Part shown: in pieces, positions 1,165-47,151 of the stretch
How the letters are laid out: each line of letters begins with the position of its first letter
How positions within the stretch are numbered: position 1 is the first letter of the stretch
NCBI GenBank assembly: GCA_016711605.1
Contig: JADJSS010000009.1
Span: 22,386-86,385 of the forward strand
From: Saprospirales bacterium
GTDB taxonomy: Bacteria; Bacteroidota; Bacteroidia; Chitinophagales; JADIYW01
DNA: 64,000 nucleotides
Direction: 5' to 3'
Position numbers and translations under genes: made by a program
Notes under the pieces: generated by a model
Told to the model about the DNA's origin: nothing
The model's database searches: none
Seen by the model: the letters and a program-made list of their open reading frames with translations, nothing else

Positions 1165-1175
1165 AATAAAAATAA

Positions 1176-1305
1176 GCACTTAAGAAGCTCAAGGAACTTA
1201 AGTTTTCTTAATAGATATAAATTTAGAAAGACAGAACACAAAGCGCATTTAGTTTAAATAACTATCAAAACTTTATTTCTTTTGCTTCTTAAGTTTCTTA
1301 AGTGG
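1176..1305. repeat. Inverted repeat of CTTAAG-cored 9-mers around a ~80-nt loop
   Basis: Left arm is GCACTTAAG AAGCTCAAG GAACTTAAG (1176-1202). Right arm is GCTTCTTAAG TTTCTTAAG TGG (1284-1305). About 15 of the outer 19 positions are complementary. The loop contains ACACAAAG, a word also present in the GxxExxY flank at 17.7 kb. Confidence 0.6.
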
Positions 1306-1374
1306 TTAAATTTTTAGTTTAGACTGATTTGTATTTGTTAATCCAAATTTCTTGTCTTATTTTGTAACAGTATT

Positions 1375-2423: not shown

Positions 2424-2499
2424 AGTAGTAAGTCATAAGTTGTAAGTAGTTAGTATAACTTGCAAATAGAAAAAACTTACTACTCACTACATACTACTT
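2424..2499 (+). repeat. Phased-heptad hairpin between porQ and cmk, with its 3' arm ending at the cmk ATG
   Basis: AGTAGTA AGTCATA AGTTGTA AGTAGTT AGTATA (2424-2457) faces ACTTACT ACTCACT ACATACT ACTT (2475-2499). In-register complementarity is about 19 of 24. Confidence 0.6.
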
Positions 2500-3180
2500 A
2501 TGACTAATAAAATAAACATTGCCATCGATGGTTACTCAGCTTGCGGAAAATCATCAACTGCAAAACGAGTGGCAAAAAAACTCAGCTATATTTATATCGA
2601 TTCTGGTGCGATGTATCGTGCAGTAACACTTTATTTTCAACAGCATTTAATAGATTTAGATAATTTAGAAGGTATTGAAAATGCGTTGCCAAAAATTGAA
2701 ATAGATTTTAAAAAAGTGGGTGATGTACATCATACCTTTTTGAATGATGTTGATGTTGAAGATGAAATTCGCCAACCACGTGTGGCAGCTATTGTTTCCG
2801 AAGTAGCAGCGATGAGTAACGTGCGCAGAAAACTGGTGGAACAACAGCAAAAAATGGCGGCACAAAAAGGAGTAGTGATGGAAGGTCGCGATATTGGAAG
2901 CGTAGTCATTCCTGATGCTGAACTCAAATTTTTTATGACAGCAGATGTAGATGTGCGCACCAAACGCAGGCAAGATGAACTACTGAAAAAATCAGGAAAA
3001 TTATTTCCGTTGGAAGAACTAAAAGCCAATCTTTTGCATCGCGACAGAATTGATTCCACGCGCGAAGATTCACCATTAACAAAAGTTGTTGATGCAATAG
3101 AAATTGACACCACACATCTTACTTTAGAAAATCAAATTGATTTAATTTATAACAAAGCAATGCAGTTGGTTAACAATTGA
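2500..3180 (+). CDS. cmk: Cytidylate kinase
   Basis: 226 aa with the P-loop IAIDGYSACGKSSTAKRVAKKL, then IDSGAMYRA and GRDIGSVV blocks typical of Cmk. Confidence 0.9.
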   Translation: MTNKINIAIDGYSACGKSSTAKRVAKKLSYIYIDSGAMYRAVTLYFQQHLIDLDNLEGIENALPKIEIDFKKVGDVHHTFLNDVDVEDEIRQPRVAAIVSEVAAMSNVRRKLVEQQQKMAAQKGVVMEGRDIGSVVIPDAELKFFMTADVDVRTKRRQDELLKKSGKLFPLEELKANLLHRDRIDSTREDSPLTKVVDAIEIDTTHLTLENQIDLIYNKAMQLVNN

Positions 3181-3326: not shown

Positions 3327-4421
3327 ATGGAATTAGTAATAGACGATATTAAAATCAAAAACACTGCTGACGAATTAAAAACAAAAATAATTCGCAAAGA
3401 AGTGCAATTAGCAAGCAAAGAGTTTCGTGCAAAACATCCGATTTTACAGCATCAAAATGCCATCGGACTTTCTATTTTTTTAGTATGTGTTGCCATGATT
3501 ATTTTGTCCGCTTATTTATATTTAACACAAAAAATTGGTGTTATTGCGGTTATACTTTCTGTTGCATTCTGGACTTCATTTTTACATGAATTAGAACACG
3601 ATTTAATTCATTTCATGTACTTCAAAAAAAATAAATTCATCCAAAATTTAATGATGCTTGGTGTTTGGGTTTTTCGACCAATGACTATAAATCCGTGGTT
3701 GCGCAGAGAAATTCATTTTCATCATCATCGTGTTTCAGGCACCAAAACAGATATCGAAGAACGTGGTGTTACCAACGGTGAGAAATGGTCTTTCAAAAGA
3801 CTAATCACTACTGCAGATATTTTATTAGGTGGCGTTTTAAGAGGAGCCCGAATTCGCAAAGACATTATAGAAGCCGTAAAAAACGGAGAACTTCCAAGAG
3901 AACAAGCTCTTGAATTTAAGAAATTAAAAATCTATGGCATGTTGCCATTCACGCTTGGTTTATATTTAGTATGGTATTTATTTTTAGCGCATTATACAGT
4001 TCATTTTTTTACATCGATTTTAAATATAGACTACCAAAGTCCGGCAATTATACAAGCACAATTTAAATGGATAAATCCATTAGTAGCTATTTTAATTTTT
4101 CCAAATTTATTCCGAATGTTTTCGTTGCATTTTATTACTTCTAACATGCACTATTACGGCGATGTAGAAGCAGGAAATGTAATGCAACAAACGCAAGTGT
4201 TAAACAAGTGGTATTTCATTCCAATGCAATTATTTTGCTGCAATTTTGGTAGCACTCATGCTATACATCATTTTGTGGTCAACGAAACATTCTATGTTCG
4301 TCAATTCACCGCAGCTAAAGCTCATAAAGTAATGCAAGAGCAAGGTGTTCGATTCAATGATATTGCTTCTATTAAAAGAGCCAATCGTTTTTTTGAAACC
4401 AGTAGATTGAAAATAGCATAA
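3327..4421 (+). CDS. Fatty-acid-desaturase-like membrane di-iron protein
   Basis: 364 aa with several hydrophobic segments and three His boxes (HELEHDLIH, HFHHHRVSG, HAIHHF). Confidence 0.65.
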   Translation: MELVIDDIKIKNTADELKTKIIRKEVQLASKEFRAKHPILQHQNAIGLSIFLVCVAMIILSAYLYLTQKIGVIAVILSVAFWTSFLHELEHDLIHFMYFKKNKFIQNLMMLGVWVFRPMTINPWLRREIHFHHHRVSGTKTDIEERGVTNGEKWSFKRLITTADILLGGVLRGARIRKDIIEAVKNGELPREQALEFKKLKIYGMLPFTLGLYLVWYLFLAHYTVHFFTSILNIDYQSPAIIQAQFKWINPLVAILIFPNLFRMFSLHFITSNMHYYGDVEAGNVMQQTQVLNKWYFIPMQLFCCNFGSTHAIHHFVVNETFYVRQFTAAKAHKVMQEQGVRFNDIASIKRANRFFETSRLKIA

Positions 4422-14207: not shown

Positions 14208-14212
14208 TTTTA

Positions 14213-14243
14213 AACCTTGAAGGTTTTAAAAACCTTCAAGGTT
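14213..14243 (+). terminator. 13-bp perfect stem hairpin after pckA
   Basis: AACCTTGAAGGTT TTAAA AACCTTCAAGGTT. Confidence 0.6.
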
Positions 14244-14258
14244 TAAGCATAAATAAAA

Positions 14259-14286
14259 GGACGCATTTATTGCGTCTTTTTTTATA
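14259..14286 (+). terminator. Rho-independent terminator after pckA
   Basis: GACGCA TTTAT TGCGTC followed by a T-run. Confidence 0.7.
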
Positions 14287-14301: not shown

Positions 14302-14332
14302 ACTCACGACTTACGACTCACAACTCACGACT
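14302..14332 (+). repeat. Phased heptad tract ACTCACG ACTTACG ACTCACA ACTCACG ACT directly upstream of the queE ATG
   Basis: Read directly from the sequence. The period is 7 nt and the tract ends 3 nt before the ATG at 14336. A near-identical tract lies inside pyrD (20802-20832). Confidence 0.8.
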
Positions 14333-14335
14333 AAA

Positions 14336-14950
14336 ATGAACTTCGATATTACAACACAAATTCCTGTTATGGAACATTTTTACACCATTCAAGGTGAAGG
14401 TTTCTATACAGGAAATGCTGCGTATTTTATACGATTGGCTGGCTGCGATGTAGGTTGTGTTTGGTGCGACGTAAAAGAATCGTGGACAGTTTCTGAAAAC
14501 CAATTGATGCTGGTAGACGATTTAATTGCAGAAGTATTAAAATATAAAGGAAGATTAATCGTTATTACAGGTGGTGAACCATTGATGTATGATTTATCAT
14601 TTCTGACAAAAAAATTAAAAGAAAACGGATTTCAAATTAATATTGAAACATCAGGTGCATATCCAATTTCTGGCGAATTGGATTGGATTTGTGTTTCACC
14701 GAAAAAATTTAAACAACCATTAAGAGAAGTAGTGCTAAAAGCAAACGAACTGAAATGCATCATTTTTAATAAATCTGACTTTGATTTTGCAGAACAAAAC
14801 TGCCTACTTGCTACTAAAGACTGCTTACTATACCTGCAAACCGAATGGAGCAAGCAAGAACAAATGCTACCATTGATGATTGATTATGTAAAACAAAATC
14901 CGAAATGGAAAATATCGCTGCAAACGCATAAATATTTGAATATTCCATAA
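14336..14950 (+). CDS. queE: 7-carboxy-7-deazaguanine synthase (radical SAM)
   Basis: 204 aa. It has FYTIQGEG, the radical-SAM cluster RLAGCDVGCVWCD, and GGEPL. Confidence 0.85.
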   Translation: MNFDITTQIPVMEHFYTIQGEGFYTGNAAYFIRLAGCDVGCVWCDVKESWTVSENQLMLVDDLIAEVLKYKGRLIVITGGEPLMYDLSFLTKKLKENGFQINIETSGAYPISGELDWICVSPKKFKQPLREVVLKANELKCIIFNKSDFDFAEQNCLLATKDCLLYLQTEWSKQEQMLPLMIDYVKQNPKWKISLQTHKYLNIP

Positions 14951-14980: not shown

Positions 14981-15084
14981 AGTGAAAGTGAGAATGAAAG
15001 TGAAAGTGGTGTAATTTTTGATTAATTTAATTTAATGAGAAATAAAATATTAATATTACTTTCTTTTTACTTACTACTTTCCAC
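14981..15084 (+). repeat. Imperfect purine-arm / pyrimidine-arm inverted repeat enclosing the start codon of the OmpA-family gene
   Basis: AGTGAAAGTGAGAATGAAAGTGAAAGTGGTG (14981-15012) faces TTACTTTCTTTTTACTTACTACTTTCCAC (15056-15084, inside the signal-peptide codons). The ATG at 15035 is in the loop. Confidence 0.5.
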
Positions 15085-16914: not shown

Positions 16915-17700
16915 TTAAAGCGCGATTTTAACCTTCAACAATTTTTCCAACAATCCTTTTACTTCACTCAACGCTAACATATTTGCGCCATCACTCAGTG
17001 CTTCTGAAGGATTTGGATGTGTTTCTAAGAAGATGCCATTTGCGCCAGCAACAATTGCACACTTTGCTAAATGCTCAATAAATTCTGGCTTTCCACCACT
17101 AACACCATCGCTTTTATTTGGTTGTTGCACTGAATGTGTTGCATCAAAAATTACAGGAAAACCAGTTTGTTGCATTAACGGAATATTTCTGAAATCAACA
17201 ATTAAATCATTATAACCAAACATCGTTCCGCGTTCTGTTAGCATAATATTTTTGTTTCCAGTTGAGAGAATTTTATCAACGGCAAACTGCATCATTTCTG
17301 CACTTACAAATTGTCCTTTTTTTATGTTAACCGTTTTTCCTGTTTTTCCAGCAGCCAATAATAATTCGGTTTGTCGACATAAAAATGCAGGAATCTGAAT
17401 TACATCAACAATATCTTTTACCAATTCGCAATCTGTCGTTTCATGCACATCCGTTAAAATTGGAATATTGAAATGCGATTTTACATCAGCTAAAATTTGC
17501 AATGCTTTTTCTTCACCAATCGTAGTAAACGAATCCAATTTTGTTCTGTTTGCTTTTTTATAAGAAGCTTTGAAAATAAACGGTATATTTAAATCCGTTG
17601 TAATAGCAACTAATTGTTCTGCAATCTCAAAACAAATTTCTTTCGACTCAACCACACAAGGTCCAGCAATTAAGAAAAATTTATCGGTTTGAAAGTTCAT
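16915..17700 (-). CDS. kdsA: 3-deoxy-8-phosphooctulonate synthase
   Basis: 261 aa. It has FFLIAGPCVVES, FKASYKKANRT and ATHSVQQP blocks typical of KdsA. Confidence 0.9.
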   Translation of the reverse strand: MNFQTDKFFLIAGPCVVESKEICFEIAEQLVAITTDLNIPFIFKASYKKANRTKLDSFTTIGEEKALQILADVKSHFNIPILTDVHETTDCELVKDIVDVIQIPAFLCRQTELLLAAGKTGKTVNIKKGQFVSAEMMQFAVDKILSTGNKNIMLTERGTMFGYNDLIVDFRNIPLMQQTGFPVIFDATHSVQQPNKSDGVSGGKPEFIEHLAKCAIVAGANGIFLETHPNPSEALSDGANMLALSEVKGLLEKLLKVKIAL

Positions 17701-17710
17701 AATAATATTT

Positions 17711-17737
17711 TAACCACTAAGACACTAAGTACACAAA
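17711..17737. repeat. Left inverted repeat flanking the GxxExxY gene
   Basis: AACCACTAAGACACTAAGTACACAAAG. Its reverse complement matches 18166-18194 at about 23 of 27 positions. Confidence 0.7.
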
Positions 17738-17739
17738 GA

Positions 17740-18147
17740 TTATTTAGGTAAAACTGAAAAATGTTCATTTACCATTGGCACTAAACTCTTCGTTATATTT
17801 TCTGTGTTAAAGTTAATTAATAAACCTTTTGGTTTTTCTAATAGTTTCATATAAGTTAATAATTGAGCTTTGTATAAAGGATGAATTTCTTCTACAGCTT
17901 TTAATTCCACAATTATTAAATCTTCTACTAAAACATCTAACCTTAAGTTACAATCTAAATATTCATCTTTATAATGTACAGGAATTTTTATTTGTTGCGT
18001 TGTTTTCAATCCTTTCAATTCTAACTCTTTAACGAAACATCTTTGATATATAGATTCTAATAAACCAGGTCCAAGTTCTTTGTGTACTTCAATTGCACAG
18101 CCAACAATTTTATAAGCAATATTATTTATATAGGTTTGTGTAATCAT
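17740..18147 (-). CDS. GxxExxY protein (PD-(D/E)XK nuclease-like, PDDEXK_3 family)
   Basis: 135 aa. It has the family signature IEVHKELGPGLLESIYQRCFVKEL and DVLVEDLIIVELKA. Confidence 0.8.
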   Translation of the reverse strand: MITQTYINNIAYKIVGCAIEVHKELGPGLLESIYQRCFVKELELKGLKTTQQIKIPVHYKDEYLDCNLRLDVLVEDLIIVELKAVEEIHPLYKAQLLTYMKLLEKPKGLLINFNTENITKSLVPMVNEHFSVLPK

Positions 18148-18165
18148 CGGTTTTAATTATTTAAT

Positions 18166-18194
18166 CACTAAGTGTTCTTAGTGTCTCAGTGGTT
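18166..18194. repeat. Right inverted repeat flanking the GxxExxY gene
   Basis: CACTAAGTGTTCTTAGTGTCTCAGTGGTT, the partner of 17711-17737. Confidence 0.7.
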
Positions 18195-18201
18195 TTAAAA
18201 T

Positions 18202-19458
18202 TTAGTAATTATACTTTTCTTTCCATCTGTCTTTCAAGAATTTCCGCAATTCGTTTTCTCTTGCATTATTATTCGGTTCATAGAATTTTGTTCCAGAAAT
18301 TTCTGTCGGCAAGTATTCTAAATCCACAAAATTATTTTCATACTGATGTGCGTATTGATAATCTTTTCCATAATTCAAATTCTTCATCAACTTTGTTGGC
18401 GCATTGCGCAAATGTAATGGAACTGATAAATCACTTGTTTTATCTGCTAAAGAAATGGCTTGTTCAATTCCAATATAACTAGCATTGCTTTTTGGTGAAG
18501 ACGCCAAATAAGTAACGCATTGTGCCAAAATAATTCTGCATTCTGGATAACCAATGGTTGTTACTGCTTGAAAACAAGCATTTGCCAACAACAACGCATT
18601 TGGATTTGCGTTGCCAATATCTTCTGAAGATAAGATCAATAAACGTCGAGCAATAAACTTTGGATCTTCGCCACCATTAATCATTCGCGCCATCCAATAC
18701 AAGGCAGCATTCGGGTCGCTGCCACGAATTGATTTTATAAACGCTGAAATAATATCGTAATGTTGCTCACCACTTTTATCATAACGCGCAATATAAGTTT
18801 GTATAATTTCTTCAACAAAAACATTCGTAATTGTTTTGTCTTCTTTTAAATTTTCAGTAACTAATTCTAAAACATTCAACAATTTTCTTGCATCACCACC
18901 AGAAAAATAAAACAATGCATCGTATTCTTTTACTATAATTTTTTCTTGTTTTAAAATTTCATCTTCTTCTAAAACATAATCCACAATTTTTTTTAAATCT
19001 TCAGCTTCTAATGATTTCAACACATACACTTGTGAACGTGACAGTAAAGCAGCATTCACTTCAAACGAAGGATTTTCTGTTGTAGCACCAATTAAAATCA
19101 ACGTTCCATTTTCAACGGCACCAAGTAGTGCATCTTGCTGCGATTTATTAAAGCGATGAATTTCATCAATAAATAAAACAGTTTGTCCAACTTCTTTTGC
19201 TTGCTCAATCACACTTCTTATCTCTTTTACACCAGCAGAAATTGCACTTAACTGTTCAATTGGCAAATTTGCATGATTAGCTAACACACGTGCTAATGTA
19301 GTTTTACCAACACCAGGTGGACCCCAAAAAATCATAGAATGCAGCTTGCCTTTTTCTATAATTTGTCGCAATGCTTTGCCATTTCCTAATAAATGATCTT
19401 GACCAATAATTTGATCAATCGTTTTCGGTCGCATTCGTTCGGCAAGTGGCTTTTGCAT
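18202..19458 (-). CDS. rarA: Replication-associated recombination protein A (AAA+ ATPase)
   Basis: 418 aa. It has Walker A GPPGVGKTT, Walker B LFIDEIHR, and the MgsA C-terminal region (YDxISAFIKSIRGSDPNAALYW). Confidence 0.9.
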   Translation of the reverse strand: MQKPLAERMRPKTIDQIIGQDHLLGNGKALRQIIEKGKLHSMIFWGPPGVGKTTLARVLANHANLPIEQLSAISAGVKEIRSVIEQAKEVGQTVLFIDEIHRFNKSQQDALLGAVENGTLILIGATTENPSFEVNAALLSRSQVYVLKSLEAEDLKKIVDYVLEEDEILKQEKIIVKEYDALFYFSGGDARKLLNVLELVTENLKEDKTITNVFVEEIIQTYIARYDKSGEQHYDIISAFIKSIRGSDPNAALYWMARMINGGEDPKFIARRLLILSSEDIGNANPNALLLANACFQAVTTIGYPECRIILAQCVTYLASSPKSNASYIGIEQAISLADKTSDLSVPLHLRNAPTKLMKNLNYGKDYQYAHQYENNFVDLEYLPTEISGTKFYEPNNNARENELRKFLKDRWKEKYNY

Positions 19459-20376: not shown

Positions 20377-21456
20377 ATGTACAAAATCCTGCGATTTTTT
20401 TTGTTCAAATTAGATGCTGAGAAAGCACATCATTTTACATTGCGTTTAATGAATTTTATTATTAAAATTCCGTTTGCAAAATATTTTCTTACTAAAATTT
20501 ATTCAATAGAAAATAAAAAACTTGAACGAAATTTATTTGGTTTAACCTTTAAAAATCCTGTTGGCTTAGCAGCTGGTTTAGATAAAAATGCGGAATGTAT
20601 TGATGCGTTTGCTGCTGTTGGTTTTGGCTTTATTGAAATTGGAACTGTAACACCTTTACCACAAGATGGAAATGAACAGCCACGTTTATTTCGCTTAATT
20701 GAAGACAAAGCTATTATAAATCGAATGGGTTTTAATAATGGTGGAATGGCTGCTGTGAAAAGTAATATAGTAAGCAGTAAACAGTATGCAGTAAAAAATA
20801 AACTCACGACTCACAACTCAAGAATCACGACTATCATTGGTGGCAACATTGGTAAAAACAAAAATACACCAAACGAAAACGCAGTTGATGATTACATAAA
20901 ATGTTTTAATGAATTGTATGATGTTGTAGATTATTTTGTAGTAAATGTAAGTTCACCAAACACACCGAATTTACGTGCTTTGCAAGAGAAAGAACCGTTG
21001 AAAAAAATCTTGTTTCAATTGCAGGAAATTAATCAACAAAAAACAAAACCGAAACCAATTTTATTAAAAATTGCGCCTGATTTAACTAACGAACAATTAG
21101 ATGATATTATCGAAATTGTTTTTGATACCAACTTAGCTGGAATTGTAGCAACAAATACTACTATTTCAAGAGAAAATTTATCGACAGAAAAAGAAAAAAT
21201 TGATGCAATTGGAAATGGTGGTTTGAGCGGAAAACCATTGACAAAAAAATCAACAGAAATAATAAAATATATTGCAGAAAAATCAGAACACAAAATTCCT
21301 ATTATTGCAGTTGGTGGAATTATGACTGCAGATGATGCGATAGAAAAGCTCAACGCTGGCGCAAGTTTAGTACAGTTATATACTGGTTTTATTTACGAAG
21401 GTCCGAGTTTGATAAAGGAAATTAATATACGCATTCTCAACTTTTCTAAAGTTTAA
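20377..21456 (+). CDS. pyrD: Dihydroorotate dehydrogenase (quinone), class 2
   Basis: 359 aa colinear with E. coli PyrD ([58 protein letters not shown]). A TATATTTG -7-like box lies at about 20359. Confidence 0.9.
20802..20832 (+). repeat. Phased heptad tract ACTCACG ACTCACA ACTCAAG AATCACG ACT inside the pyrD coding sequence
   Basis: It is the same word family as 14302-14332. It encodes [10 protein letters not shown] within a loop about 14 aa longer than in E. coli PyrD. Confidence 0.75.
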
Positions 21457-25428: not shown

Positions 25429-25850
25429 TACTACAAAATATAAATAACTTAGGTATTAATACACTTTTTCGTAAAAAAAAATGGAATGCAAAAAAGCATC
25501 CCAAATAACATAGAAACATAAAAACCCACTTTCTTGTCTCAATTTTAATAAATAAATGAGAGCTAACTGATTAATTTCAAGACAAGTAATAAAATAAACA
25601 ACTATTAATCACAACACAAAAATATCTCTACTCTTTAACAATATATCAGTAACTAGAATTCGGTACTAAAATGACTTTAAATGGTAGAAACTATTTAGTA
25701 TTTGGTATTTAAAATCAAACACAACAAGTTCATAACCAACTGTAAATCAACAATATAATTTTAAAAACACAAATATCAAAATCTTATCAAAAATTTACAA
25801 TCTTATTAAAATTACTTTTTTACACATTATCTTATCATTACCACGCCAAA

Positions 25851-29500: not shown

Positions 29501-30165
29501 ACTCGCATGTAAAAGCAATTGCCGCAATAGAATCAGGAAAATTTAAAGATGAAATTGTACCTGTAACAGTGGAAGAAGTTTATTTGAAAGACAATAAAAG
29601 AAAAGTTCGTTCTACTATAGTGGATACAGATGAAGGTGCGCGTAAAGACACAACTGTAGAAGGCCTTGCAGCATTAAAAGCAGTATTTGCAGCAAAAGGT
29701 TCTGTAACTGCAGGTAACTCATCTCAAACATCTGATGGCGCAGCATTTGTGTTAGTGATGTCAGAAAAAATGGTAAAAGAACTAAACATCGAACCAATCG
29801 CAAGATTAGTAACAAGTGCAGTTGTTGGTTGCGAGCCACGCATCATGGGTATTGGTCCTGTAGTAGCAATACCACGTGCATTACAATTAGCAGGTTTAAA
29901 AATCGAAGACATTGAAATGATTGAATTAAACGAAGCATTTGCTGCACAATCATTAGCAGTAATTCGCACATTGGGTTTAAATCAGGATATCATTAATCCA
30001 AACGGTGGTGCCATTGCATTAGGTCATCCACTAGGTTGTTCAGGTGCAAAATTATCTGTACAATTAATTAATGAAATGCGTCGTCAAAACAAACGCTACG
30101 GTATGGTGTCAGCTTGTATAGGTGGTGGACAAGGTATCGCAGGAATTATAGAAAGACTTAAATAG
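26566..30165 (+). CDS. Fused 3-hydroxyacyl-CoA dehydrogenase / enoyl-CoA hydratase / acetyl-CoA C-acyltransferase (FadB-like plus FadA-like in one ORF)
   Basis: Residues 1-798 hold an NAD Rossmann fold (VAVLGSGVMGSGIA) and a crotonase-like region, ending TGKPLRN. A 9-aa linker, NSKSKIQNT, follows (28960-28986). Residues 808-1199 are a complete thiolase starting MQEAYIVAGYRSAIGKA, with NRYCASGL, GNSSQTSDGAA and CIGGGQG. The ORF track shows no in-frame stop between the parts. Confidence 0.85.
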   Translation: METTTTQPTRAIRKVAVLGSGVMGSGIALHFANIGVEVLLLDIVPFDLKEEEKANPKMRNKIVNDAFAFALKSKPAQAYNPESAKKVTLGNFDDDMPKIKDCDWIIEVVIERLDIKKQVFEKVDNLRKKGSLVTSNTSGIPIHLMAEGRSEDFQQNFCGTHFFNPPRYMRLLEIIPTATTSQSVIDFLMHYGDVFLGKETVLCKDTPAFIANRVGVYAMAKIFQLTQELGLTIEEVDKLTGSAIGRPNTGTFKLSDLVGNDTGTKVMLGIKENCPNDEQASAFDVPKYVQFLLDNKFFGNKTKKGYYYKDEKRNSFSLRLDTLVYEPTGKPKFPSLDASNKSENLAGKVNAFINADDKGAQLVKRSLSGLFAYVSNRVPEISDVLYAVDDALRAGFAWDIGPFQYWDIVGIEKGIELAKADGLSIGTWVTEMLAAGNTTFYKVENGVKKYYDQQSKSYKAIPGAESFIILDNLRSNKPVWKNSGGTLHDIGDGVLNLEFTSKMNSLGGDVLAAINKSIEIAEGGYKGLVIGNDATNFSVGANLMMISMLAMDQEYDELDMAVRQFQQTTMRCRYSAIPVVSAPHGMTLGGGCEVTMHSNAVVAAAETYIGLVEVGVGLIPAGGGTKELTLRTSDSFKNGDPMLQTLQDNFLSIAMAKVATSAAEAIDLNLMRKGVDRVVVNGKRVIAEAKREVLELSAKGYTQTAHRNDITVLGRTGLGTLTVGVESFVAGGYISAHDAVIAKKVAYVMCGGDLSAPTQVNEQYLLDLEREAFLSLCGEKKTLERIQAMLTTGKPLRNNSKSKIQNTMQEAYIVAGYRSAIGKAKKGGFRFYRPDDLGADVVKHLVASVPQLDPSRIDDLICGNAIPEAEQGMQIGRMIVLRAGLPLSIGGVTVNRYCASGLETIAMATAKIKAGMADCIIAGGVESMSLLPMTGWRTVLNYGIASTTPDYYSSMGLTAEAVATQYGISRLDQDTFAYNSHVKAIAAIESGKFKDEIVPVTVEEVYLKDNKRKVRSTIVDTDEGARKDTTVEGLAALKAVFAAKGSVTAGNSSQTSDGAAFVLVMSEKMVKELNIEPIARLVTSAVVGCEPRIMGIGPVVAIPRALQLAGLKIEDIEMIELNEAFAAQSLAVIRTLGLNQDIINPNGGAIALGHPLGCSGAKLSVQLINEMRRQNKRYGMVSACIGGGQGIAGIIERLK
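28960..28986 (+). repeat. Spacer-like phased tract (TTCAAAA TCTAAAA TTCAAAA TACA) translated as the FadB-FadA linker
   Basis: It has the same A/C/T-only heptad style as the leader tracts at 30211-30260 and 47092-47119, and it ends at the thiolase ATG (28987). Confidence 0.6.
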
Positions 30166-30172
30166 AATTATA

Positions 30173-30260
30173 GAGATGAGATCTGAGATGATGAAATAAA
30201 AAGATAATTATCTCTCATCTCTTTTCTCATTTCTCAAATCTAAAATCTAAACATCTCAAC
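30173..30260 (+). repeat. Phased-heptad hairpin between fadBA and the acyl-CoA dehydrogenase gene
   Basis: GAGATGA GATCTGA GATGATG (30173-30193) is followed by an A-rich loop. Then TCTCTCA TCTCTTT TCTCATT TCTCAAA TCTAAAA TCTAAAC ATCTCAAC (30211-30260) abuts the ATG at 30261. CTCATCTC and GAGATGAG give a perfect 8-bp core. Confidence 0.75.
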
Positions 30261-33894: not shown

Positions 33895-35964
33895 ATGTCT
33901 ATTAACACCAATAATAATTTAACAGAATTACAAAAAGCTGTTTTTGAGTCAATGTACGAAGAGGCATTCAACTTAAAATCAAAAAAAGAATATGTAAAAG
34001 CAATAGATTCATACATCAAAATAATCCAATTAAAACAAGATGAAGTTGACTGTTTAGAATGCGCAAAATTATACGAAGACGTTGGTGATATTTACTATGA
34101 ATTAAAGGAATACCAACAATCATTTGAATATTTACAAAAAGCAAATACTGTTTATTCTGAGAATAATAAAGTGGATTTGCTATTAGCATCTTATAGAAAA
34201 ATTGGTGGATTACAATTAGGTATTTGGCAATTTAAAAAAGCAATAGATTTATTTCAGGAAGGACTTTCATTATCAACAAGAACTGGCAACATGACTCAAA
34301 TTGTAGAGTTTGAATTATTGCTTGGTAACGCTTACAACTGGCAAGATGATTTTATAAATGCTGAAAGATATTTATTAAGTGCTCTGGAAAAAGAGAAACG
34401 AATTAATACACCATTAATTAGATTAAGAGCAAAAGTAAGCTTTGCCATCTTGTGTAGAAAAATGAAAAAATTTGAGCAAGCTGAAGCATTATTTATTGAA
34501 GGTATGGAATATTCGCGATTGAATAATAATGCATTTCATTTAGACATCACAAAGAGCTATGGAATTATGCAGTTTGATATTGGCAACTATGAAAAAGCAG
34601 AAGAATTATTAAAATCAGCCGAAAAACAATCTCAGGTAGAAGGTTTTGAAACAACGCGTGCCGTTATTTTAGAATATTTATACAAACTCTATTACGCAAA
34701 AAATGATTTTGAAAGAGCATACCTATACAGCGTTAAATTTTATGAACGAAAAATTGAATTATTAGAAAGAGGATTTTCTGATGCTAATAATATTTTACAA
34801 GCAAAAATTGGCTTAGCTGATGCCAAACGCGAACGCATTATTGCAGAAGAATCTGCGAGTGCTAAGAGTTTGTTTATTGCAACCATTAGCCATGAAATTC
34901 GCACACCAATGAATATCATTTTAGGTACAACTTCGTTAATGTTAAACGATAAACCTAAGAAAGAACATGAAAAATATTTAACTACACTAAAACGTTCTGG
35001 TGAAAATTTATTAGGTATCATAAATGATATTTTAGATATTTCGAAAATTGAAGCTGGCAGATTGGAAATAGAAATAGAACCAACAGATTTACACGAAGTG
35101 TTTGATAATATTTTCAATACGATGGAACAACCGGCAAATGACAAACAACTGGCTTTGACGTATAAAATTGATGATAAAATTAACTTCTTAATTCATTCAG
35201 ATCCATTGCGATTGACGCAAATTATTACCAATTTAATTAGCAATTCCACCAAATTTACAGCAAAAGGAAGTATTCATTTTGAAGCAAAATTAAAATCTAA
35301 AAACAAACTCGAAATTATTGTGCGCGACACAGGTATTGGAATTCCAAAAGATAAACTCGCTACTATTTTTGATCAGTATGAACAAGTGCGTACGAAAGTG
35401 CAAAAGAAATATAAAGGAACAGGTTTGGGTTTGGCAATTTCAAAAAAATTAGTGGAAATGCTGAATGGAACCATTCAAATAAAAAGCAAAATAAATGAAG
35501 GCACTTCGTTTGTTATTCAGTTGCCTTTTGAAAAAGCTGCAATGCAAAAAAATGTTGACGAAAGCGTTATCAAAAAAGATACTTCTTTCTTAACCAAGAA
35601 AACAATTTTGATTGTAGATGATTTAGAAGACAATCGTTTTATTTTGAAACAAACGTTATTGTTTTACAATAAAGACCTAACTATTTTAGAAGCAGAAAAT
35701 GGCTTGGTTGCAGTTGATTTTTGCAAGAAAAATAAAATTGATTTAGTCATCATGGATTTGGATATGCCTGAAATGAATGGCTTTGAAGCATTATCTGAAA
35801 TTAGAAAAAACAAAAAAACAAAAAACTTAATTGTTATTGCAAGCACCGCCAGTTTAATTACCAATGGCGATGATGAATTTATTGAATTTGGTTTTGATAC
35901 GTATTTGCCCAAACCATTTGAAATGGAAGATTTGTATAATTTGCTTGTGAAAACGTTAAAATAA
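33895..35964 (+). CDS. Cytoplasmic hybrid sensor histidine kinase (TPR region, HisKA, HATPase_c, receiver)
   Basis: H-box SHEIRTPMN, N/G boxes (RDTGIGIP, GTGLGLAISK) and a C-terminal receiver (ILIVDDLEDNR, DLVIMDLDMPEMNG). There are no TM segments. The start is placed at MSINTNNN (33895); the track start is 33850. Confidence 0.85.
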   Translation: MSINTNNNLTELQKAVFESMYEEAFNLKSKKEYVKAIDSYIKIIQLKQDEVDCLECAKLYEDVGDIYYELKEYQQSFEYLQKANTVYSENNKVDLLLASYRKIGGLQLGIWQFKKAIDLFQEGLSLSTRTGNMTQIVEFELLLGNAYNWQDDFINAERYLLSALEKEKRINTPLIRLRAKVSFAILCRKMKKFEQAEALFIEGMEYSRLNNNAFHLDITKSYGIMQFDIGNYEKAEELLKSAEKQSQVEGFETTRAVILEYLYKLYYAKNDFERAYLYSVKFYERKIELLERGFSDANNILQAKIGLADAKRERIIAEESASAKSLFIATISHEIRTPMNIILGTTSLMLNDKPKKEHEKYLTTLKRSGENLLGIINDILDISKIEAGRLEIEIEPTDLHEVFDNIFNTMEQPANDKQLALTYKIDDKINFLIHSDPLRLTQIITNLISNSTKFTAKGSIHFEAKLKSKNKLEIIVRDTGIGIPKDKLATIFDQYEQVRTKVQKKYKGTGLGLAISKKLVEMLNGTIQIKSKINEGTSFVIQLPFEKAAMQKNVDESVIKKDTSFLTKKTILIVDDLEDNRFILKQTLLFYNKDLTILEAENGLVAVDFCKKNKIDLVIMDLDMPEMNGFEALSEIRKNKKTKNLIVIASTASLITNGDDEFIEFGFDTYLPKPFEMEDLYNLLVKTLK

Positions 35965-35997
35965 AAAAGTGCGAAATATCTATTTCGCACTTTTTTA
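35965..35997. terminator. Bidirectional terminator between convergent genes
   Basis: AGTGCGAAATA TC TATTTCGCACT flanked by an A-run and a T-run. Confidence 0.75.
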
Positions 35998-36013
35998 TTT
36001 TTTATAAGCTCAA

Positions 36014-36831: not shown

Positions 36832-38889
36832 ATGAGAAGAAAATTTTTCTTTTTATCTTTTATGGTAATTGCGGTTTTAAGTAAAGCACAGTTATTTACA
36901 GAAAGTTTCAGCACATACACGGTTGGTTCAAACTTAACTACCAACGGTTGGAGCCAGTGTGCTTCAGGTACAGTTCCTTTAACTATAAATGGAACAAACC
37001 TTACCTATCCAGGATATTATTCTACCAACACCAATAATTCCTTATATTTTAATTCCACTGCATCTAACTATGGTGGTTATTGTAAAACATGGACTGGTGT
37101 AAACAGCGGCTCCATCTATATGTCTTTCTTATTTAGAGATTCTGTAATTGCTGCAGCTGCAACATCAGGTGATTACTTCATAACTTTTGGTTCAGACTGG
37201 TTAAATAATGCTGGTCGTGTTTTATTTAAATCCAGCGGTGGTTCTTTTCAGTTTGGAACAAGAAAATCAACAGGTGCTGATGCGTATTCTACTACAACGT
37301 ATACACCTAATCAAACACATTTAGTTGTCTTAAAATATACTTTTAATACTGGTACAACTACAGATGACGTTGTTGGTATTTATGTCGATCCAACTTTGCC
37401 AAGCACAGAACCTGCAACGTTTACAGTTACTGCACCAGCAACTAATGATTTTACAAATTCAATCGGAAATGTTTTTTTACGTTTAAATATGTCAACAGCA
37501 AATGTTCCAAATGCACATATTGATGCTATTAAAGTAGCAACATCATGGTCTGATTTATTCGGAACCGCATGTACACCAACAACAACTAATCTGAATCAGG
37601 CAATTTGTCAAGGTGCAAGTATCGTGTTTAATGGAAATACAATCACTGGTGCTGGAACTTTTAGAGATACACTACAAACCACATTAGGTTGCGATAGCTT
37701 TATTGTGTTGAATGTATCTGTAAGACAAAGTCCGACTACAACATTAAATCAGGCAATTTGTCAAGGTGCAAGTATTGTGTTTAATGGAAATACAATCACT
37801 GGTGCTGGAACTTTCAGAGATACACTACAAACTTCATTTGGTTGCGATAGTTTTATTGTGTTTAATGTATCTGTACGACAAAGTCCGACTACAACATTAA
37901 ATCAGGCAATTTGTCAAGGTGCAAGTATTGTGTTTAATGGAAATACAATCACTGGTGCTGGAACTTTCAGAGATACCTTACAAACTTCATTTGGTTGCGA
38001 TAGCTTTATTGTGCTGAATGTATCTGTAAGACAAAGTCCGACTACAACATTAAATCAGGCAATTTGTCAAGGTGCAAGTATTGTGTTTAATGGAAATACA
38101 ATCACTGGTGCTGGAACTTTCAGAGATACACTACAAACTTCTTTAGGTTGCGATAGTTTTATTGTGTTAACAGTTGCAGTAACGTCTTTACCTAATATCA
38201 CCGTTAACTCACCTTCTATTTGCAGCGGACAAACAGCAACCTTAACGGCAAACAACGGCACAAGCTATACATGGACTGGTGGTTTAACAGGAAATCCTGC
38301 AACCACGCAAACATTGAATAGCAATGCATCATTCACAGTTACTGGAACGGTTGGAAATTGTTCAAATACAGCTGTTGCAACTGTAACCGTAAATTCAACA
38401 CCAGCGCAATCTTTTATTACACAAGGACACGATACATTATACTCAAGCACTGTAGTAGCAAACGCTACTTATAATTGGTATTTAAATGGAAATACGACTC
38501 CAATTGCAACCACCAATTCTTCTTTCTATAAATTTACTACACAAGGTACTTATACCGTTAAAGTAGTAAGCAACGATTGTTCTTCGCCAATATCAACAGG
38601 TTATCTAACAACATCATTAGGTGTTAGGAATAGCAGTTCTGTAAAATCATTTGCTATTTTTCCAAATCCTACTGATAGTAGATTGGTGTTAGATATTAGT
38701 TTGCTTAAAACTGCAAACGTTCAATTAAAAATATTCAGTACCGAAGGCAAAGAAATGTTGTATAAGAATTTTGGAACCGTTAAAGATTTGAATGAAACAT
38801 TAAACATCAGCGAATTTGCAAAAGGTATTTATATACTGAAATTACAGGTTGATGATGAAATTAATTATCAGAAAGTAGTGAAACAATAA
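36832..38889 (+). CDS. T9SS-secreted adhesin-like protein (LamG-like N-domain, 4 Cys-containing 51-aa repeats, type A C-terminal sorting domain)
   Basis: 685 aa with a signal peptide. The C-terminus FAIFPNPTDSRLVLDI...GIYILKLQVDDEINYQKVVKQ fits the Por_Secre_tail type. Confidence 0.8.
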   Translation: MRRKFFFLSFMVIAVLSKAQLFTESFSTYTVGSNLTTNGWSQCASGTVPLTINGTNLTYPGYYSTNTNNSLYFNSTASNYGGYCKTWTGVNSGSIYMSFLFRDSVIAAAATSGDYFITFGSDWLNNAGRVLFKSSGGSFQFGTRKSTGADAYSTTTYTPNQTHLVVLKYTFNTGTTTDDVVGIYVDPTLPSTEPATFTVTAPATNDFTNSIGNVFLRLNMSTANVPNAHIDAIKVATSWSDLFGTACTPTTTNLNQAICQGASIVFNGNTITGAGTFRDTLQTTLGCDSFIVLNVSVRQSPTTTLNQAICQGASIVFNGNTITGAGTFRDTLQTSFGCDSFIVFNVSVRQSPTTTLNQAICQGASIVFNGNTITGAGTFRDTLQTSFGCDSFIVLNVSVRQSPTTTLNQAICQGASIVFNGNTITGAGTFRDTLQTSLGCDSFIVLTVAVTSLPNITVNSPSICSGQTATLTANNGTSYTWTGGLTGNPATTQTLNSNASFTVTGTVGNCSNTAVATVTVNSTPAQSFITQGHDTLYSSTVVANATYNWYLNGNTTPIATTNSSFYKFTTQGTYTVKVVSNDCSSPISTGYLTTSLGVRNSSSVKSFAIFPNPTDSRLVLDISLLKTANVQLKIFSTEGKEMLYKNFGTVKDLNETLNISEFAKGIYILKLQVDDEINYQKVVKQ
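37582..38193 (+). repeat. Four tandem, near-identical 153-bp (51-codon) repeats inside the adhesin gene
   Basis: The unit ACTACAACATTAAATCAGGCAATTTGTCAAGG... recurs at 37735, 37888 and 38041, and the first copy begins near 37582. The protein unit is TTLNQAICQGASIVFNGNTITGAGTFRDTLQTSFGCDSFIVLNVSVRQSP, with only a few substitutions between copies. Confidence 0.9.
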
Positions 38890-45371: not shown

Positions 45372-45406
45372 AGTTACTGTTTACTGCCTACTTTTTACTA
45401 AATTCT
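45372..45406 (-). repeat. Phased heptads (AGTAnnn x5 on the coding strand) between rpoA and rplQ
   Basis: On the plus strand: AGTTACT GTTTACT GCCTACT TTTTACT AAATTCT. A partial complementary arm lies at about 45346-45366. Confidence 0.6.
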
Positions 45407-47083: not shown

Positions 47084-47091
47084 TTTTATTT

Positions 47092-47119
47092 AAGATTTGA
47101 GATTTAAGATTTGAGATTT
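47092..47119 (-). repeat. Phased heptads AAATCTC AAATCTT x2 (coding strand), 8 nt upstream of the rpsD ATG
   Basis: On the plus strand: AAGATTT GAGATTT AAGATTT GAGATTT. Confidence 0.75.
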
Positions 47120-47151
47120 AAAGTTCAAATACTAATCTATTATTTTATTTA

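Follow-up and report, generated by a model that had tools for sequence, protein, structure and literature searches.

In a 64,000-nucleotide stretch of DNA from a Saprospirales bacterium (contig JADJSS010000009.1, positions 22,386 to 86,385; referred to below as the window), the 501-nt spacer between the genes rarA and kdsA is almost entirely filled by a unit in which a GxxExxY gene is bracketed by two inverted arrays of short tandem words. The bracketing is confirmed far beyond chance, and this word-arm architecture is the rule for the GxxExxY family across phyla rather than a local oddity. The unit also shares its architecture with the intervening sequences (IVS) of rRNA, and the likeness is more than a loose resemblance. 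On balance, the unit (17704-18202) is probably a promoterless, evolutionarily mobile gene cassette of the IVS type, whose stem would form in read-through RNA and be cut by RNase III. What is new here is the IVS design outside rRNA, with a predicted nuclease as its cargo, as a family-wide rule.

The GxxExxY unit between rarA and kdsA

The GxxExxY/PDDEXK_3 gene occupies positions 17740-18147 on the minus strand. It is co-oriented with the upstream host gene rarA (MgsA/RarA AAA+ ATPase; 18202-19458, minus strand) and with the downstream host gene kdsA (DAHP_synth_1 family; 16915-17700, minus strand). A first-pass annotation, made from the letters alone, had placed a GxxExxY open reading frame (ORF) of 135 codons at this junction, and gene calls and profile hidden Markov model (HMM) matches agree with it. 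A repeat search delimited two arms of 31 nt each, 84% complementary and with 437 nt between them: a purine-rich 5′ arm at 18172-18202 (minus strand; transcript sense AATTTTAAAACCACTGAGACACTAAGAACAC) and a pyrimidine-rich 3′ arm at 17704-17734 (minus strand; transcript sense GTGTACTTAGTGTCTTAGTGGTTAAAATATT). Both are composed of 8-nt CACTRAG (CACTAAG-type) words, and Tandem Repeats Finder reports three copies of CACTAAGA at 17715-17739. The inverted repeat of about 27 bp made of CACTAAG-type words that had been described here is real, with coordinates off by no more than 1 nt (17711 should read 17712 for the start of the left word block). From end to end, the unit takes up 499 nt of the spacer: its outermost base pair draws on the final nucleotide of the rarA stop codon, and at the other end it stops 3 nt short of the kdsA ATG.

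The terminal stem is present in both the minimum free energy and the centroid folds of the full 516-nt RNA (z = −3.2; 0 of 100 shuffles). With the score defined in the next section, the inverted repeat of the window reaches 18.5-21, and none of 400 displaced pseudo-genes of equal geometry from related loci reaches 14. The only σ70-like match near the cassette overlaps the 3′ end of rarA; Bacteroidota use another promoter consensus, and we take this match to be uninformative. The stems were also considered as intrinsic terminators, a reading that we rejected for both directions: T-runs precede and A-runs follow them, and a terminator scan found none at the arms. At the gathering threshold, no Rfam family covers the stems in the window, and no rRNA was found there; Rfam searches in E-value mode over 15 loci likewise returned no family for the stems, only spurious miRNA-hairpin matches.

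The 135-residue protein matches TIGR04256 (GxxExxY; 143.4 bits against a cut-off of 35, E = 3.7e-42) and PF13366 (PDDEXK_3; 137.1 bits against a cut-off of 22, E = 4.5e-40). Residues E20, D71, E81 and K83, which form the predicted PD-(D/E)XK constellation, are invariant across an alignment of 24 homologs. The AlphaFold (AF2) model has a pLDDT of 94.7, and the order of its secondary-structure elements fits the alpha-beta-beta-beta-alpha-beta core of PD-(D/E)XK enzymes. Foldseek returned weak matches only, to lambda exonuclease, Cas4 and a splicing endonuclease; a PDB sequence search with the protein gave no match. Interpretation as a defence system was rejected, PADLOC yielding nothing beyond weak Cas4-like HMM matches. 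A phage origin was rejected as well: tblastn over 50,697 phage records gave no match, and eight plasmid records were matched.

To compare the junction in relatives, RarA homologs were used as anchors. An ortholog with arms occupies the same place in L001-L010 (GxxExxY protein 96% identical) and in L011-L016 (87%), and all of these retain the cassette arms. In L097 and L098, with RarA 90% and 89% identical to that of the window, the junction is empty, with spacers of 14 and 27 nt, respectively. In L102 (RarA 81% identical in global alignment, 84% in the table of search matches), it holds a 76-nt ORF-less hairpin of GAATGAT words (z = −4.0). In L099/L100 and L101 (RarA 86%), it holds a GxxExxY gene whose product is only 64-67% identical to that of the window, with the words ACTTAAG and CACTGAG. 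The cassette is less diverged than its flanks: compared with the window, L001 shows 96% identity in the cassette protein, 88% in RarA and 83% in KdsA, and third positions of codons for identical amino acids agree in 82% of cases for the cassette versus 66% for rarA (75% versus 62% for the window and L011). No target-site duplication was found, the longest direct match between a unit's own flanks averaging 3.96 nt versus 3.72 nt for unrelated pairs. The first-pass annotation had suggested an insertion cassette and proposed this very comparison, in which the junction indeed proves to be empty in some relatives and occupied by an ORF-less hairpin or another GxxExxY subtype in others. Since occupancy is patchy, two cassette types share the junction and the cassette appears younger than its flanks, the comparison as a whole argues for repeated gain, loss or replacement of the cassette.

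Word arms across the GxxExxY family and at four-helix-bundle genes

We next asked how general the arms are. A genome set of 80 diverse GxxExxY loci was assembled from one-per-species genomes of Bacteroidota, Ignavibacteriota, Planctomycetota, Acidobacteriota, Pseudomonadota and other phyla. Each locus was scored by comparing the 120 nt on either side of the gene for their best ungapped complementarity; as the control, 400 pseudo-genes of matching length were placed at displaced positions in these loci. A score of at least 12 was obtained for 61% of the genome loci versus 0.7% of the controls (Mann-Whitney p = 1e-26), and flanking inverted repeats were present in 78% of the 67 loci of an independent metagenome set. 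The expectation that other GxxExxY genes would carry such repeats was thus borne out and, as described below, it holds for most of the plasmid four-helix-bundle genes too.

Arms of the 83 non-redundant strong stems have a median length of 30 nt, with a median of 14 nt separating the 5′ arm from the ATG and of 11 nt separating the stop codon from the 3′ arm. In 72 of the stems, the coding strand has the purine-rich arm on its 5′ side. Of these 72 canonically oriented stems, 59 show a word period of 8-9 nt, and their outer ends have the consensus TTAACCAY-NN-AG, mirrored by RTGGTTAA. The words themselves vary by lineage (CACAGAG, CACATAG, CATTAAG, CACTAAG, CACGGAG, CATATAAG and others), and the two arms within a locus still match. 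In orthologous Chryseobacterium loci, the inner word has changed from AAGTTAAG to TTTTTAAG in both arms, a triple compensated change.

One planctomycete locus, L091, contains two GxxExxY cassettes (212-742 and 1438-1857) 700 nt apart; since one uses CGCGGAG words and the other CACAAAG, arms appear to be specific to the cassette and not to the genome. Some loci have duplicated arms: directly after the rarA stop codon, L011 carries another, degenerate copy of the 5′ arm (2876-3000), the upstream flank of L017 carries a tandem 27-nt copy of the 5′ arm, the downstream flank of L081 repeats the 3′ arm together with about 60 nt of flank, and in L101 the GTGGTAAAA end is repeated (4225-4270). A Lentimicrobiaceae metagenome-assembled genome (MAG), L021, shows at 1184-2007 two 97%-identical ORF-less hairpins, an arm-gene-arm unit and an orphan 5′ arm, with 3′ and 5′ arms joined by a conserved 14-nt spacer, TTATTTCTTCAARG; at 189-518, the same locus has a tandem array of at least 16 copies with a 14-nt period.

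In the genome set, 62 of 71 cassette genes point the same way as their upstream neighbour, 58 of 66 the same way as the downstream one and 48 of 61 the same way as both; just 3 loci have two opposed neighbours. A co-oriented ORF of at least 100 codons ends within 150 nt of 55 of the 71 stems, and the 5′ arm begins a median of 8 nt past the upstream stop codon, which it overlaps in 14 cases. Cassettes thus occupy tight junctions of co-directional genes, in the sense orientation, as expected of a promoterless insert that relies on read-through and as is the case for IVS in rRNA.

The same arrangement is seen with another cargo. In L042, a TIGR02436 four-helix-bundle (S23p-type) gene adjoins the GxxExxY gene and lies between word-type arms of its own. 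Most of ten four-helix-bundle genes that we took from plasmids are flanked by inverted heptamer arrays (one has direct arrays, and two lack paired arms), with the words TAGGGAG/CTCCCTA in Nostoc, AGGTGAC in Anabaena, AAAAGGG in Geminocystis and CAGAGGG in Stanieria. In one of the ten loci, from an Azospirillum plasmid (L192), a bacterial large-subunit rRNA (RF02541, 708 bits, model positions 774-1755) is interrupted by a TIGR02436 four-helix-bundle ORF between 36-nt word arms (TCAGAGGACGGATGACAGAGGACGGAGGACAGAAAG). L192 is therefore a genuine 23S helix-45 IVS, and since it has word-type inverted arms, the similarity to rRNA IVS that the first-pass annotation had pointed out is well founded. 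None of about 160 GxxExxY loci had 23S helix-45 flanks, and a motif search likewise placed none within rRNA. Three of the four-helix-bundle genes (L184, from a Pseudanabaena plasmid, L186 and L187) lie within CRISPR-Cas operons, between cas6 and cas4 or cas10 and cmr3; the arrays that flank L184 are long and direct, with (AAAAGCT)n on the upstream side and (AAAAGCC)n on the downstream side.

For the Coxiella IVS, a 28-bp stem and tandem GACAGAT heptamers are reported, with RNase III cutting inside the stem (PMC4990558). Like the 23S rRNA IVS, the window unit measures 400-500 nt, ends in inverted repeats that give a stem of about 28-36 bp, has arms that contain tandem words of 7-10 nt (in Coxiella GACAGAT, PMC4990558; in Azospirillum L192 the CAGAGGACGG type), carries in its loop a single small ORF in the sense of the host transcript, and is patchily distributed. 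It differs in cargo and place: the IVS of Coxiella, Leptospira and Azospirillum carry an S23p/four-helix-bundle ORF and interrupt rRNA, whereas the window unit carries GxxExxY and lies between two protein genes in a window that has no rRNA. By definition it is therefore not itself an IVS, the place of which is within 23S rRNA (helix 25 or 45). The short tandemly repeated repetitive (STRR) sequences of cyanobacteria, or contiguous heptamer repeats, whose role is described as unresolved (bioRxiv 10.1101/2022.06.06.494920), are also short tandem intergenic words near start codons, and the cyanobacterial four-helix-bundle genes of L185, L187, L188 and L190 sit between inverted arrays of just such heptamers. 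In contrast, the words of the window type are 8-9 nt long and belong to Bacteroidota, STRR have been described as repeats and not as gene brackets, and the arrays of L184 are direct, not inverted. In the literature searched, which left most subscription journals and database family descriptions outside its scope, we found no account of inverted word arrays at GxxExxY genes and no report of flanking repeats at four-helix-bundle genes outside rRNA.

A further claim of the first-pass annotation, that the 3′ flank of the transcript can pair with the codons of the conserved EVHKE motif near the start of its own gene, holds for the window and does not extend to the family. A coding 13-mer over these codons (18077-18089, minus strand) is the perfect complement of 17727-17739 in the 3′ flank, a length reached in 5 of 2000 flank shuffles. 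Pairing of at least 8 nt at the motif was found at 6 of 155 loci, only in the lineage of the window and two others, and L011 has lost it through an uncompensated synonymous change from GTA to GTT. As one such case among 155 loci is about what chance would give, helped by CACAAAG being a usual word, the 13-nt match is probably coincidental and specific to this lineage. Derivation of the arm words from VH(K/R)E codons was rejected as well: the own-locus effect, 4.04 versus 4.27 mismatches (p = 0.0075), is very small and of the kind that shared base composition gives.

Proposed mechanism and rival explanations

We propose that the cassette is transcribed by read-through from rarA and that its two word arms form a long-range stem of about 30 bp in the resulting RNA. 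RNase III is predicted, by analogy, to cleave this stem, which would free a cassette RNA capped by the stem and detach the rarA portion of the transcript from the kdsA portion. Such excision may be what makes insertion into tight operon junctions, or into rRNA, tolerable. The RNA stem and its RNase III site are predicted because the design is identical to that of IVS, for which cleavage has been demonstrated. An RNA stem is favoured over a DNA one since a loop of 440 nt is unlikely in a DNA cruciform and normal for RNA. Processing stems of rRNA enclose kilobases. As to movement of the DNA, the intact predicted active site suggests that the protein takes part, for example by homing or by cutting at word hairpins. 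Mobilisation in trans, or through recombination by the host, is no less likely: equivalent cassettes encode a four-helix-bundle protein that lacks a nuclease fold, so that a nuclease in cis is not required for movement.

Several observations weigh against this reading or fail to distinguish it. Isolated mismatches in the strong stems are G-U in the sense RNA in 22 cases and A-C in 42 (p = 0.017), and sense and antisense arm pairs fold with equal stability (p = 0.10), so these comparisons, being neutral, give no preference for RNA over DNA or for the sense strand. About one quarter to one third of GxxExxY genes have no detectable arms; the genes of L031, L048 and L184 are flanked by complete hairpins or direct arrays and not by half-arms; and three of the eight four-helix-bundle plasmid genes with annotated neighbours are antisense to those neighbours. 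The lower synonymous divergence of the cassette could reflect constraint, not transfer, and complementarity of the arms could owe its persistence to templated quasi-palindrome correction and not to selection. The isolated mismatches in the 83 stems (L017-L182) are also biased in that an A in the 5′ arm stands opposite a C in the 3′ arm in 34 of 155.

The most serious rival, which we nevertheless hold to be unlikely, is an element acting at the DNA level, the arms being terminal recognition or recombination sites that would fold as cruciforms or as single-stranded DNA hairpins, the GxxExxY nuclease cutting them and so bringing the cassette, by homing or transposition, into other word hairpins, and the RNA stem being a by-product. 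It would account for the invariance of the predicted nuclease residues, the weak matches to the folds of lambda exonuclease, Cas4 and splicing endonuclease and to Cas4 HMMs, the conservation of the outer ACCAY..AG / RTGGT across phyla beyond what pairing needs, the lack of a wobble signature of RNA selection, the ORF-less word hairpins (possible targets or remnants, present or absent among relatives) and the duplicated arms of L011, L017, L081 and L101. The DNA-level element sits poorly with the absence of target-site duplications, with the equivalent cassettes whose four-helix-bundle protein has no nuclease fold, with words that differ within 64 kb and between the two L091 cassettes, which makes a single recognition sequence per genome unlikely, with the established improbability of cruciform extrusion around a 440-nt loop, and with the strong bias towards sense orientation, which it would not be expected to produce. 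Quite improbable, in our judgement, is a vertically inherited host gene without mobility, whose stem acts only in cis, on mRNA stability, translational masking or coupling. This view would fit the conservation of the locus across many metagenomes (142 indexed blocks for P0001), an upstream stop codon that abuts the stem, and a 5′ arm that ends shortly before the ATG and in which Shine-Dalgarno-like words (GGAG, GAGG), paired to CTCC of the 3′ arm, are frequent. It would leave unexplained why the nearest relatives by RarA identity have empty junctions while two divergent cassette types share one, why the synonymous divergence of the cassette is below that of rarA, and why cassettes occur at unrelated junctions across taxa, including within CRISPR-Cas operons and 23S rRNA.

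A very unlikely explanation is an integron-type cassette or a system of repetitive extragenic palindromes (REP) and their RAYT transposases, with attC- or REP-like hairpins handled by a dedicated recombinase or transposase. Hairpins of 75-150 nt do occur, sometimes in tandem with genes between them (L021, L048 and L072), the outer TTAAC/GTTAA loosely resembles attC core sites, and integron cassettes are likewise promoterless small sense ORFs with imperfect hairpins that vary in sequence and retain their structure. The layout of a REPtron is moreover recognisable in a lone small nuclease-type gene between inverted hairpin-forming repeats, with ORF-less hairpins of similar style dispersed elsewhere in the genome. 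Nevertheless, no integrase or HUH transposase was found near the cassette in the window or in orthologs, and the cassette is a solitary one within a conserved housekeeping junction and not part of an array. Its ORF lies inside the hairpin loop and not between complete sites, and tandem-word arms are unlike attC or REP. The four word hairpins of the window use different words, so that hairpin sequences are not uniform in this genome; as further differences from REPtrons, the enzyme is of the PD-(D/E)XK and not the HUH type, and the gene family is often multi-copy and horizontally patchy. Rickettsia palindromic elements and miniature inverted-repeat transposable elements (MITEs) are, like the units described here, small palindromic inserts at gene junctions and sometimes in frame within genes, to which the pyrD insertion at 20769-20832 may be compared; unlike them, the units have no target-site duplication, form no sequence-uniform family and in many copies contain an ORF. 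Judged as an insertion sequence or MITE, the window unit shows occupied and empty sites, no target-site duplication and no transposase. Finally, chance or low-complexity composition, for which the AT-rich genome (33% GC in the window) and the simplicity of the words could be invoked, can be dismissed for practical purposes: no displaced control attains the score of the window, two independent locus sets agree, and the arms are conserved in orthologs.

Beyond the promoterless IVS-type cassette that we favour for this locus, a wider reading may be entertained tentatively, though we regard it as rather doubtful: 23S rRNA IVS, STRR heptamer arrays and the intergenic word hairpins of Bacteroidota and other phyla would be one class of mobile elements, rendered harmless through excision from the RNA by RNase III. 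Members would be defined by two inverted arrays of 7-10-nt tandem words closing a loop that is either short or carries a GxxExxY PD-(D/E)XK nuclease or an Avd/S23p-like four-helix bundle, and they would insert in sense directly behind stop codons or into the tips of rRNA helices. At its strongest, this reading makes the GxxExxY nuclease the enzyme that would move or maintain the elements. No such unified class is named in the literature searched.

GxxExxY and four-helix-bundle proteins form very large families without known function (of the 8000 candidates scored in the first search, 7950 had E <= 0.001), and the origin of rRNA IVS and the role of cyanobacterial heptamer repeats are decades-old questions. 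If most such genes are stem-bracketed cassettes on host transcripts, these three puzzles would become one testable problem, and the word stem would offer a concrete substrate for the biochemistry of the proteins and of RNase III. The matter also concerns annotation, as both these units and the related ORF-less elements break up operon junctions and are even able to enter genes in frame.

Other word hairpins, arrays and neighbouring genes

The spacer at 1176-1305, which had been proposed to be an ORF-less version of the cassette, does contain a word hairpin, at 1168-1313 (plus strand) between thiH and the next gene. Its 35-nt arms (1168-1202 and 1279-1313) are 74% complementary, consist of CTTAAG-type words and enclose a 76-nt loop (z = −3.1), and its polarity relative to the flanking genes is the same as that of the cassette. 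It is present in some relatives and absent from others: L193 (ThiH 91%) has a more perfect form that begins with AACCACTTAAG, and L194 and L195 (ThiH 86% and 80% identical) lack it. A second ORF-less hairpin, at 2431-2505 (plus strand), has 25-nt arms that are 88% complementary and made of CATAAG/TGTAAG words; the same relatives have variant words or the left array alone. A third, of GAGATGA-type words, lies between two co-oriented genes at 30163-30242 (plus strand). We rejected the idea that the ORF-less loops are remnants of gene deletion, as neither blastn nor blastx detected similarity to GxxExxY or four-helix-bundle genes.

Word arrays also occur within and around genes. The pyrD gene (dihydroorotate dehydrogenase; ORF 20377-21456, plus strand) contains in frame, at 20769-20832, four copies of AGTAAGC followed by four of ACTCACG, which add 9-12 residues absent from three orthologs; the ortholog of L102 has a different, longer insertion in the same loop. 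The sense RNA of these arrays forms no hairpin (−1.9 kcal/mol), and the antisense folds weakly (−9.1 kcal/mol). The ACTCACG word, found in pyrD at 20802-20832, recurs as a 4.4-copy array at 14302-14332 that stops 3 nt before an ORF of 204 codons (14336-14950). Past the stop codon of that ORF, at 14981-15008, lies a partly complementary array of AGTGAA/AGTGAGA words (predicted duplex, −17.7 kcal/mol), and the host gene 14336-14950 may be bracketed in the manner of the cassette.

Spacer arrays that have no obvious inverted partner were found at 47088-47121 (ATTTAAG/ATTTGAG, 5 copies), 45374-45399 (TTACTGT, 3.7 copies) and 25692-25711 (TATTTAG, 2.9 copies); two of these lie between minus-strand genes in a cluster at 44.8-47.5 kb. 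A near-perfect palindrome without words at 14208-14246 (TTTAAACCTTGAAGGTTTT/AAAACCTTCAAGGTTTAA), followed by a classical terminator at about 14260-14283, and a 21-nt perfect inverted repeat with T/A runs and no word structure at 35958-36001 are ordinary terminator-like hairpins, in contrast to the word hairpins. An ORF of 685 codons (36832-38889) contains a coding tandem repeat at 37594-38168, with 3.8 copies of a 153-nt unit at 95% identity.

RarA matches of about 100% identity are annotated as "Saprospirales bacterium" MAGs, and the window comes from a Chitinophagales/Saprospirales-type member of Bacteroidota. In the window and in orthologs, the neighbourhood consists of rarA, kdsA, pyrD and an OmpA-like gene. 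Between near-identical strains (L001-L010 versus L004/L006/L010), the region downstream of kdsA, up to the OmpA/PD40 gene, is variable: an ORF of 124 codons and a helix-turn-helix gene are present or absent, and a ParE toxin gene is intact or truncated beside a retained Unstab_antitox gene. A PIN-domain pair is located upstream of rarA.

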